Source of the DNA: Escherichia coli
GTDB lineage: Bacteria; Pseudomonadota; Gammaproteobacteria; Enterobacterales; Enterobacteriaceae
DNA: 64,000 nt
Reading direction: 5' to 3' (one strand)
NCBI RefSeq assembly: GCF_024502345.1
Contig: NZ_JALDNN010000001.1
The notes under the pieces were generated by a model. That model saw only the letters and a list, made by a program, of their open reading frames with translations, did no database searches and was not told the DNA's origin. The number at the start of each line of letters is the position of its first letter. The first letter of the stretch is position 1. This document shows, one piece after another, positions 22,588 to 24,770 of this stretch. The position numbers were made by a program, and so were the translations under genes.

Positions 22588-23739
22588 ATGTCACTTGTCA
22601 CCGATCTACCCGCCATTTTCGATCAGTTCTCTGAAGCTCGCCAGAAAGGCTTTCTCACCGTCATGGATCTCAAGGAGCGCGGCATTCCGCTGGTTGGCAC
22701 TTACTGCACCTTTATGCCGCAAGAGATCCCGATGGCAGCCGGTGCGGTTGTGGTTTCGCTCTGTTCTACCTCTGATGAAACCATTGAAGAAGCGGAGAAA
22801 GATCTGCCGCGCAACCTCTGCCCGCTGATTAAAAGCAGCTACGGCTTTGGCAAAACCGATAAATGCCCCTACTTCTACTTTTCGGATCTGGTGGTCGGTG
22901 AAACCACCTGCGACGGCAAAAAGAAAATGTATGAATACATGGCGGAGTTTAAGCCCGTTCATGTGATGCAGTTGCCGAACAGCGTTAAGGACGATGCCTC
23001 GCGTGCGTTATGGAAAGCCGAGATGCTGCGCTTGCAAAAAACGGTAGAAGAACGTTTTGGGCACGAGATTAGCGAAGATGCTCTGCGCGATGCCATTGCG
23101 CTGAAAAACCGCGAACGTCGCGCACTGGCTAATTTTTATCATCTTGGGCAGTTAAATCCTCCGGCGCTTAGCGGCAGCGACATTCTGAAAGTGGTCTACG
23201 GCGCAACCTTCCGGTTCGATAAAGAGGCGTTGATCAATGAACTGGACGCGATGACAGCCCGCGTTCGTCAGCAGTGGGAAGAAGGCCAGCGACTGGACCC
23301 GCGTCCACGCATTTTAATCACCGGCTGCCCGATTGGCGGCGCAGCAGAAAAAGTGGTGCGGGCGATTGAAGAGAATGGCGGCTGGGTTGTCGGTTATGAA
23401 AACTGCACTGGGGCGAAAGCGACCGAGCAATGCGTGGCGGAAACGGGCGATGTCTACGACGCGCTGGCGGATAAATATCTGGCGATTGGCTGCTCCTGTG
23501 TTTCGCCGAACGATCAGCGCCTGCAAATGCTCAGCCAGATGGTGGAAGAATATCAGGTCGATGGCGTAGTTGATGTGATTTTGCAGGCGTGCCATACCTA
23601 CGCGGTGGAATCGCTGGCGATTAAACGTCATGTGCGTCAGCAGCACAACATTCCTTATATCGCTATTGAAACAGACTACTCCACCTCGGATGTCGGGCAG
23701 CTCAGTACCCGTGTCGCGGCCTTTATTGAGATGCTGTAA
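22588..23739 (+). CDS. yjiM: 2-hydroxyacyl-CoA dehydratase component-like protein YjiM
   Basis: Track ORF 22567..23739; probable start at MSLVTDLP with GGAAGG RBS; HgdB/BcrB-like Cys-containing sequence; synteny with yjiL. Confidence 0.8.
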   Translation: MSLVTDLPAIFDQFSEARQKGFLTVMDLKERGIPLVGTYCTFMPQEIPMAAGAVVVSLCSTSDETIEEAEKDLPRNLCPLIKSSYGFGKTDKCPYFYFSDLVVGETTCDGKKKMYEYMAEFKPVHVMQLPNSVKDDASRALWKAEMLRLQKTVEERFGHEISEDALRDAIALKNRERRALANFYHLGQLNPPALSGSDILKVVYGATFRFDKEALINELDAMTARVRQQWEEGQRLDPRPRILITGCPIGGAAEKVVRAIEENGGWVVGYENCTGAKATEQCVAETGDVYDALADKYLAIGCSCVSPNDQRLQMLSQMVEEYQVDGVVDVILQACHTYAVESLAIKRHVRQQHNIPYIAIETDYSTSDVGQLSTRVAAFIEML

Positions 23740-23742
23740 GGA

Positions 23743-24516
23743 GTGGCAGTGACATATTCGATTGGCATTGATTCTGGTTCTACCGCCACCAAAGGGATCT
23801 TACTGGCAGACGGCGTGATTACGCGCCGTTTCCTCGTTCCAACCCCCTTTCGCCCGGCAACAGCAATTACTGAAGCCTGGGAAACTCTGCGCGAAGGGTT
23901 AGAGACAACGCCGTTTCTGACGCTCACCGGCTACGGACGGCAACTGGTGGATTTTGCCGATAAACAAGTGACGGAAATCTCCTGTCACGGGCTGGGCGCA
24001 CGGTTTCTTGCGCCAGCAACGCGCGCGGTAATCGACATCGGTGGTCAGGACAGCAAAGTGATTCAGCTTGATGATGACGGTAACCTGTGCGATTTCCTGA
24101 TGAATGACAAATGCGCGGCGGGCACCGGGCGTTTCCTGGAGGTGATCTCGCGCACGCTTGGCACCAGCGTCGAGCAACTCGACAGCATTACCGAAAATGT
24201 CACGCCACACGCCATCACGAGTATGTGCACAGTGTTTGCTGAATCAGAAGTGATCAGCCTGCGCTCAGCGGGCGTCGCGCCAGAAGCGATTCTCGCCGGA
24301 GTGATTAACGCGATGGCGCGGAGGAGTGCCAATTTCATTGCTCGTCTCTCCTGTGAAGCGCCGATTCTGTTTACTGGTGGCGTTAGTCATTGCCAGACGT
24401 TTGCCCGGATGCTGGAATCTCACCTGGGAATGCCGGTAAATACCCATCCTGATGCGCAATTTGCTGGCGCAATTGGCGCGGCGGTAATTGGTCAACGAGT
24501 GAGGACACGCCGATGA
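23743..24516 (+). CDS. yjiL: BadF/BadG/BcrA/BcrD-type ATPase (activator of 2-hydroxyacyl-CoA dehydratase-like YjiM)
   Basis: N-terminal actin-fold ATPase motif YSIGIDSGSTATKGILL; 3 nt after the yjiM stop; GTG start at 23743 or 23749. Confidence 0.85.
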   Translation: MAVTYSIGIDSGSTATKGILLADGVITRRFLVPTPFRPATAITEAWETLREGLETTPFLTLTGYGRQLVDFADKQVTEISCHGLGARFLAPATRAVIDIGGQDSKVIQLDDDGNLCDFLMNDKCAAGTGRFLEVISRTLGTSVEQLDSITENVTPHAITSMCTVFAESEVISLRSAGVAPEAILAGVINAMARRSANFIARLSCEAPILFTGGVSHCQTFARMLESHLGMPVNTHPDAQFAGAIGAAVIGQRVRTRR

Positions 24517-24770
24517 AAGAGTTTTTATTTTTATTTCACTCCACAGTCGGCGTCATACAAACCCGCAAAGCGTTGCAGGCAGCGGGCATGACTTTTCGCG
24601 TCAGCGATATTCCCCGTGATTTACGCGGCGGCTGCGGGTTATGCATTTGGCTGACCTGTCCCCCCGGCGAGGAAATACAATGGGTGATCCCTGGGCTGAC
24701 TGAGTCAATTTATTGCCAGCAGGATGGTGTCTGGCGCTGCATTGCACATTACCGGGTTTCTCCGCGTTAA
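24513..24770 (+). CDS. Small Cys-containing protein translationally coupled to yjiL (possibly DUF3343-like)
   Basis: 85-aa ORF whose ATG overlaps the yjiL stop (ATGA); GGCGLC motif; domain guess from memory only. Confidence 0.45.

Follow-up and report, generated by a model that had tools for sequence, protein, structure and literature searches.

Introduction

The Escherichia coli protein YjiM has been placed among the 'class II' double-cubane proteins and described as working with YjiL in the review by Jeoung and co-workers, which mentions no third component (PMC7317905). The occurrence of double-cubane proteins follows that of SelD: 955 of the 970 such proteins counted by Haft were in SelD-containing genomes (bioRxiv 10.1101/2022.07.06.499078). 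The DUF3343 proteins, with one conserved Cys, were proposed by Lin et al. in 2015 to be chaperones for the trafficking of selenium (Se) or sulfur (S). The earliest associations noted for this family were with YedF and selenocysteine lyase, a neighborhood that is a tendency and not a requirement, and the DUF3343 partners given for Slackia in a STRING table include, without comment, an activase and HGD subunits (PMC5322559). These two independent bioinformatic lines converge on the locus studied here. It lies in a 64,000-nucleotide (nt) stretch of E. coli DNA (contig NZ_JALDNN010000001.1 of assembly GCF_024502345.1), hereafter the window, where a small DUF3343 gene, ytiA, directly follows yjiM and yjiL.

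We observed that the three genes form a conserved unit in Enterobacteriaceae, and that DUF3343 genes recur beside related reductase and activase genes in other bacteria. Based on these observations, we propose a candidate role for YtiA as a small cysteine-based carrier that serves the YjiM and YjiL pair.

Results

A third cistron downstream of yjiL

The original prediction, made from the letters of the window alone, described an open reading frame (ORF) of 85 amino acids with a GGCGLC motif, its ATG overlapping the yjiL stop codon as ATGA and its end lying just upstream of yjiK. This arrangement was confirmed in the sequence (Table 1). The ytiA ATG occupies 24513-24515 and the yjiL stop codon TGA occupies 24514-24516, with TG-A common to both; the GGCGLC motif covers residues 39-44 of the product, and the GTG start of yjiK at 24835 (RefSeq, K-12) is 64 nt 3' of ytiA. 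The ORF had also been thought to be missing from the K-12 gene list, which proved to be mistaken. The MG1655 genome (NC_000913.3) already annotates it as ytiA (b4715, YP_009518833.1, 'uncharacterized protein YtiA'), and the RefSeq labels for the product in E. coli are 'DUF3343 domain-containing protein' or 'putative Se/S carrier protein'. Databases thus list both the gene and its family label already, and nothing is added here to the E. coli gene list. The protein encoded in the window differs from that of K-12 at a single residue, R81 instead of G81. Literature matches to 'ytiA' were almost all to an unrelated ribosomal-protein paralog of Bacillus subtilis, and E. coli YtiA appears in one preprint solely as a low-confidence docking hit.

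A domain search and conservation of the frame across Enterobacteriaceae had been suggested as checks on the prediction, and both supported it. YtiA matched PF11823 (Se_S_carrier, formerly DUF3343) with an E value of 4.5e-13 and 48.9 bits (cutoff 25) over model positions 2-57 of 69. The Pfam name of the family, 'Putative Se/S carrier protein-like', agrees with the carrier-like nature that had been suggested for the protein, a function that was itself deduced by bioinformatics. The ytiA segment was matched in 5385 of 5426 complete E. coli genomes (99%), and the 2.6-kb region from yjiM to ytiA in 5386 of 5426. Homologs with intact frames and 52-96% identity were found in at least 11 genera, namely Escherichia, Citrobacter, Klebsiella, Raoultella, Kosakonia, Atlantibacter, Yokenella, Phytobacter, Cedecea, Hafnia and Superficieibacter. 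Purifying selection acts on the frame: the pairwise ratio of nonsynonymous to synonymous substitution rates (dN/dS) was 0.09-0.44 overall and, in pairs without synonymous saturation, 0.06-0.28 for the first 47 codons.

The junction between yjiL and ytiA is conserved as well. The overlap was kept in eight loci from different genera, as ATGA, GTGA, TAGTG, TAATG or an 11-nt overlap, and was seen in Klebsiella, Yokenella, E. albertii, Superficieibacter, Citrobacter, Cedecea and Hafnia. Klebsiella pneumoniae and Yokenella regensburgei lack yjiK and yjiJ downstream and have different genes upstream, yet the HGD-D, BcrAD_BadFG and Se_S_carrier genes remain contiguous and overlapping. The same contiguity was found in E. 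albertii, Superficieibacter, Citrobacter, Cedecea and Hafnia, and all ten enterobacterial YjiM loci carried a DUF3343 gene. Hence, the yjiM-yjiL-ytiA triad is a conserved unit where the flanks differ. The Pfam match, the enterobacterial orthologs, the dN/dS values below 1 and the retained overlap together bear out the idea of a real, translationally coupled gene. On sequence grounds, we identify ytiA as a true protein-coding gene that forms the third cistron of an operon with yjiM and yjiL. It is probably translated by coupling to yjiL, as suggested by the ATGA overlap, the Shine-Dalgarno sequence inside yjiL and the selection on the frame.

Conserved residues and predicted fold of YtiA

YtiA is a single-domain protein of 85 amino acids in which no other domain was matched, and its homologs contain 74-96 amino acids. 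Among 20 enterobacterial sequences, the invariant residues are M1, L7, F8, H9, T11, G13, V14, R18, Q22, F28 and V30 in the N-terminal part, followed by D32, I33, P34, R35, L37, R38, G40, C41, G42, L43, C44 and W57, while the C-terminal third is variable. The motif D-I-P-R-x-L-x-x-x-C41-G-L is nearly invariant over at least 11 enterobacterial genera. When homologs from Firmicutes were included (20 sequences from Enterobacteriaceae and Firmicutes), only F8, C41 and G42 were invariant, and P34 was nearly so. The second Cys of the motif, C44, is a Ser in Hafnia and is missing from most of the homologs in Firmicutes. The ortholog of Hafnia paralvei (L012, 7940-8197) reads GCGLS at this site, and its start lies 11 nt before the activase stop codon; the GCGLS sequence indicates that Cys41 alone is required. 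Since only F8, C41 and G42 are invariant and C44 is replaceable, we take Cys41 in the glycine-rich loop as the functional residue.

The AlphaFold2 model of YtiA has a predicted local distance difference test score (pLDDT) of 89.9 and a predicted template modeling score (pTM) of 0.80. Its secondary structure elements follow the order β-α-β-β-α-β-β, and the loop with the conserved Cys is located between strands 2 and 3. YtiA is predicted to be a ferredoxin-like protein of the DUF3343/PF11823 family. The best Foldseek hits to the model were PII/GlnK proteins, and a sequence search of the PDB with the YtiA profile returned nothing beyond a chance match (E = 0.22).

Identity of YjiM and YjiL

The pair upstream of ytiA had been described as dehydratase-like, and this description did not hold. 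YjiM matched NF040772, 'double-cubane-cluster-containing anaerobic reductase', with 532 bits (cutoff 350) and the Pfam domain HGD-D with an E value of 5.9e-122. It was rejected as a dehydratase subunit, with scores of 95.8 bits against HadC (cutoff 700) and 19.9 bits against HadB (cutoff 750). In an alignment of 43 homologs, seven Cys residues of YjiM were conserved (40, 59, 78, 108, 273, 302 and 335), with spacings of 18, 18, 29, 164, 28 and 32 that are slightly below the published pattern (PMC7317905). YjiL matched TIGR00241 with 364 bits (cutoff 125) and the Pfam domain BcrAD_BadFG with an E value of 1.1e-76. These matches identify YjiM as a predicted double-cubane [8Fe-9S] reductase and YjiL as its predicted ATP-dependent activase. 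In O157:H7, yjiM mRNA increased 2.76-fold together with anaerobic respiration genes upon oxygen limitation (PMC2241611), and the YjiM protein has been quantified by mass spectrometry (bioRxiv 10.1101/2021.07.26.453744).

One YjiM homolog of 722 amino acids (P0122) has a YjiM-like double-cubane domain at residues 1-383, 51% identical, which is apparently fused to a C-terminal PucR-type helix-turn-helix. This protein may be a sensor-regulator that makes use of a double-cubane domain, or the product of a gene-calling merge.

DUF3343 genes beside double-cubane reductases in other bacteria

A profile built from 43 YjiM relatives was used to collect loci from one genome per species, and the 80 best-scoring loci, mostly from Firmicutes, were analyzed. 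DUF3343 ORFs were found in them by an iterated hidden Markov model (HMM) search, and PF11823 was matched by 20 of the 20 representatives tested. Outside Enterobacteriaceae, an activase gene was present in 42 of 71 loci and a DUF3343 gene in 16 of 71. The idea of a conserved third component therefore stood for the enterobacterial loci, where the triad is kept throughout; elsewhere the component is frequent and not universal.

Where a DUF3343 gene is present, it tends to be close to the reductase module. In ten of 18 non-redundant cases, no more than 160 nt separate the DUF3343 gene from a reductase or activase gene, which has a binomial probability of about 1e-11 if genes were placed uniformly in the 6-kb flanks. 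Writing DCCP for the double-cubane cluster protein, DUF for the DUF3343 gene and ACT for the activase, the order was DCCP-DUF-ACT in four loci (L029, L054, L065 and L084), DUF-ACT-DCCP in three (L067, L069 and L070), DUF-DCCP-ACT in L034, and DCCP-ACT-DUF, as in E. coli, in L085. The DCCP-DUF-ACT loci carry long-form double-cubane paralogs, with 515-521 bits on NF040772, and these paralogs make up four or five of the cases with an adjacent DUF3343 gene. Because the adjacency has been recreated in different gene orders, it points to a functional tie and not to the common descent of one operon. Our literature searches found no paper that explicitly states a triad of DUF3343, double-cubane protein and activase, and none that discusses E. 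coli ytiA. The recurrence of DUF3343 as the third partner of reductase and activase pairs within selenium gene neighborhoods is apparently undiscussed.

Selenium and sulfur genes in the neighborhoods

The neighbors of the sampled YjiM-relative loci were clustered, and the recurrent clusters were named and counted. A cysteine-desulfurase family protein (TIGR01977), close to the selenocysteine lyase SclA, was found in 15 loci, YedF (TIGR03527) in 10 loci and SelD in five loci. Nine out of the 10 YedF-containing loci have the YedF gene beside a DUF3343 gene. Strings of SclA-like, DUF3343, activase and DCCP genes with overlapping gene ends were observed in L067, L069 and L070, and the order in L081 is DCCP-ACT-SclA-like-DUF3343-YedF. 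In a metagenome-assembled genome (L092, 2426-9201), SelA, SelB, a long-form double-cubane protein, the activase and SelD are encoded in one same-strand string. A wider sample of DUF3343 genes contained strings of SclA-like, SelD, YedF and DUF3343 genes in variable order and without a double-cubane gene (e.g., L087 and L090), and such strings adjoin xanthine-dehydrogenase-type or molybdenum-cofactor genes.

Three further recurrent neighbors, an MtaA-like methyltransferase (9 loci), a corrinoid protein (6 loci) and a RACE protein (5 loci), correspond to the 'type 1 mlp' cluster. This cluster was proposed to recycle methyl-selenium compounds, and 'dicubane cluster protein' genes were noted nearby (PMC10418091, preprint).

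Two side observations were made on these neighborhoods. The string in L092 is the tightest selenium linkage of any double-cubane gene in this analysis. Genes for MtaA/CmuA-like methyltransferases, corrinoid proteins and corrinoid reductive activators directly adjoin YjiM-like genes in about nine loci, and type 1 mlp genes flank the double-cubane gene in L028, L038, L043, L053, L063, L065 and L077.

Layout of the locus in the window

The gene order at 19.9-27.6 kb of the window is mdtM-yjiN-yjiM-yjiL-ytiA-yjiK-yjiJ, in the orientation opposite to that of K-12, with kptA on the opposite strand within this region. The features of the operon are listed in Table 1. The yjiM stop codon and the GTG start of yjiL are separated by 9 nt.

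Table 1. Features of the yjiM-yjiL-ytiA region, in positions of the window.
Feature	Position	Strand	Description
yjiM	22588..23739	+	First cistron; predicted double-cubane [8Fe-9S]-cluster reductase (DCCP); NF040772, Pfam HGD-D and RefSeq concordant
yjiL Shine-Dalgarno GGAG	23740-23743	+	Read from sequence
yjiL	23749..24516	+	Second cistron; predicted ATP-dependent electron-transferring activase; TIGR00241, Pfam BcrAD_BadFG; annotated start and stop
ytiA Shine-Dalgarno GAGGA	24501..24505	+	Within the 3' end of yjiL, 7 nt 5' of the ATG; read from sequence
ATGA junction	24513..24516	+	Overlap of ytiA start and yjiL stop; putative translational-coupling junction
ytiA (b4715)	24513..24770	+	Third cistron; 85 amino acids; DUF3343/PF11823 'putative Se/S carrier'
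ytiA codons 32-44	24606..24644	+	Conserved loop with Cys41-Gly42, from alignment; Cys41 codon TGC at 24633-24635

An Rfam scan of both strands of 22300-25000 (E ≤ 1) gave no match, and therefore no RNA element accounts for the region. A simple sigma-70 promoter scan of 22300-27000 found no promoter-like site 5' of yjiM, and a terminator scan of the same interval found nothing convincing between ytiA and yjiK. The spacer between yjiN and yjiM (22473-22587, 115 nt) has no sigma-70-like match, though yjiM is reportedly induced as oxygen runs out.

Several other features were observed around the operon. An alternative, longer yjiK frame from an ATG at 24724 overlaps the final 47 nt of ytiA, and the N-terminus of the yjiK product from the GTG at 24835 resembles a lipoprotein-type signal with a terminal Cys. 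The E. coli alleles of the ytiA segment (24480-24800) fall into two groups, with 2361 genomes at 99% identity or above and 2138 at 90-95%; the whole 2.6-kb region from yjiM to ytiA is at 95-99% identity or above in nearly all E. coli genomes. In O157:H7-type strains the match stops at window position 24723, which suggests that divergence or replacement is locally concentrated in the 3' end of ytiA and the following spacer. In Klebsiella pneumoniae, the double-cubane gene is preceded, at a distance of about 100 nt, by a gene for a 79-amino-acid DUF2164 protein (PF09932; L003, 3739-3978). Yokenella has such a gene as well (L005, 3059-3298), about 0.8 kb upstream and with a minus-strand ORF of 58 amino acids in between, and the corresponding position in E. 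coli has just the 115-nt spacer after yjiN.

Discussion

Proposed role of YtiA

We lean towards a model in which YtiA is a Cys41-based relay of selenium (or sulfur) that serves YjiM and YjiL. Cys41 would hold the selenium (or sulfur) transiently as a perselenide or persulfide, and would give it up to, or take it from, the active site of YjiM, the double-cubane reductase that the ATPase YjiL would charge with low-potential electrons. The system would turn bound or oxidized selenium (sulfur) species into selenide (sulfide) that SelD and other users could draw on. For the conversion of zero-valent selenium to selenide, a reductase that is driven by ATP and works at very low potential is chemically sensible. 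Three parts of the model are inferred: a load of Se or S on Cys41, contact between YtiA and YjiM, and the direction of the transfer. A protein loop as the substrate would suit the open active-site channel described for YjiM (PMC7317905).

A bolder form of this model is rather doubtful, namely that YjiM, YjiL, YtiA and their relatives are a dedicated ATP-driven selenide supply for SelD. The DUF3343 protein would receive selenium on its Cys41 from a desulfurase, a selenocysteine-lyase-type enzyme or some other source, and reduction of this selenium to selenide by the double-cubane cluster, at very low potential, would follow; in a variant, selenium itself would be built into the cluster. If true, a SelD supply would give both the long-sought physiological substrate of the double-cubane reductases and the missing selenium-delivery step of bacteria.

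A number of observations weigh against a relay that serves YjiM and YjiL. The 80 loci are the best-scoring YjiM relatives and not a random sample of the family. Even among these, 55 of the 71 loci outside Enterobacteriaceae have no DUF3343 gene within 6 kb, which indicates that the partner is frequent and not obligatory and that the reductase has no strict need for DUF3343; conversely, many DUF3343 genes stand without a double-cubane gene. A fusion search with ten long YjiM homologs found an activase, a PucR-type helix-turn-helix and an extra HGD-D domain as fusion partners, and none with DUF3343. Neither a second DUF3343 gene nor any SclA-like, YedF or SelD gene is present in the 64-kb window, and the selenium link of the E. 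coli locus therefore rests wholly on homology to relatives. None of the sampled loci has a selenocysteine (in-frame TGA) at the position of Cys41. The DUF3343 family shows no separate Se and non-Se branches (PMC5322559), and sulfur is therefore as possible as selenium. Finally, literature searches with ytiA, b4715 and DUF3343 found no experiment on YtiA or any DUF3343 protein and no protein-level evidence for YtiA, the translation of which is deduced.

Alternative explanations

The most basic alternative, that the ORF arose by chance or is a pseudogene in decay, and is not translated, is extremely improbable. The variable C-terminal third and the lack of published protein-level evidence in our searches would fit it, but they stand against a significant Pfam match, a frame that has stayed intact in 11 genera or more, at dN/dS values far below 1, a conserved coupling junction and Shine-Dalgarno sequence, a confident AlphaFold2 model and presence in 99% of complete E. 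coli genomes, and this conservation effectively refutes it. If the gene is real, YtiA might still act independently of its neighbors, as a general Se/S carrier that is merely co-transcribed with yjiM and yjiL and serves SelD or thiolation pathways. The loci L087 and L090, with SclA-like, SelD and YedF genes around DUF3343, are what such a carrier would predict, and the original link of the family was to YedF and selenocysteine lyase and not to a reductase (PMC5322559). We consider it unlikely, however, as enterobacterial genera retain the overlap of the ytiA start with the stop of the activase gene, the triad is preserved while the flanks change, and the adjacency has been recreated in four gene orders in Firmicutes with the low probability given above.

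Two other explanations tie YtiA to its neighbors in a different way from the relay. As a maturation factor, YtiA would deliver sulfide or selenium for building the [8Fe-9S] cluster of YjiM, for example the bridging atom. This shares the operon linkage and the conserved Cys with the relay model, an adjoining cysteine-desulfurase-like gene is typical of Fe-S assembly systems, and Haft names selenium within the cofactor as a formal possibility (bioRxiv 10.1101/2022.07.06.499078). Such a role is nevertheless quite unlikely in view of the 55 double-cubane loci that lack DUF3343, and the family member with a solved cluster structure was described with its reductase partner only (PMC7317905). Moreover, DUF3343 genes occur in SelD/YedF clusters beside genes of Se-dependent molybdenum hydroxylases and without a double-cubane gene, and hence the role of the family cannot be specific to the double-cubane cluster. 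YtiA could instead be a small regulatory or structural subunit with a PII-like fold that sits on YjiL or YjiM and modulates the ATPase or electron transfer, Cys41 being a redox switch or a metal ligand. The conserved loop between strands 2 and 3 in the model is at the position of the T-loop of PII proteins, PII/GlnK proteins were the top structural matches, and the enterobacterial sequences contain the C41-x-x-C44 pair; we regard this possibility as distinctly unlikely.

The relay of selenium or sulfur by Cys41 remains the explanation that we favor. The recurrence of small DUF3343 genes by the reductase module and by selenium genes is a testable clue to the natural job of the enzyme, and E. 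coli holds all three players as one small, apparently translationally coupled operon in a genetically tractable host.

Comparison with known systems

The 2-hydroxyacyl-CoA dehydratases (HgdAB/HgdC and HadBC/HadI) have folds homologous to those of YjiM and YjiL (HGD-D and BcrAD_BadFG) and also depend on ATP-driven electron injection by an activase. They differ from the locus in that an α/β pair of HGD-D genes takes the place of the single one found here, and three conserved Cys residues that of the seven in YjiM; the dehydratase equivalog models were not matched. We know of no dehydratase that needs a DUF3343 protein.

TusA and YedF, like YtiA, are small proteins with a single reactive Cys, and they relay a chalcogen from a pyridoxal phosphate-dependent desulfurase or lyase to a downstream enzyme. 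YtiA, however, had no TusA match at E ≤ 0.1, its motif is GCGL (C-G) whereas that of TusA/YedF is CPxP, and the β-α-β-β-α-β-β order of its predicted fold also sets it apart. The YedF and DUF3343 families co-occur, and therefore they are not substitutes for one another.

Within the DUF3343/PF11823 family, YtiA is typical in passing the HMM cutoff and in its single-domain size, 75-95 amino acids here and 80-100 in the published description (PMC5322559), as well as in the one invariant Cys followed by Gly in a loop after a P-x-P-R-like segment. It is unusual in that the gene in E. coli is not beside YedF, selenocysteine lyase or SelD, the neighbors that gave the family its name, and is instead tightly joined to a double-cubane reductase and activase pair. 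The extra Cys of YtiA (C41-x-x-C44) is missing from the family at large.

The closest described system is the double-cubane cluster protein with its reductase partner, DCCP and DCCP-R (Jeoung & Dobbek; PMC7317905). YjiM and YjiL are the E. coli homologs of these two proteins, as judged by the NF040772 match, the seven Cys residues and the TIGR00241 activase. The published system was described with two components, whereas a third small cysteine protein is encoded here and in about one fifth of the related loci.

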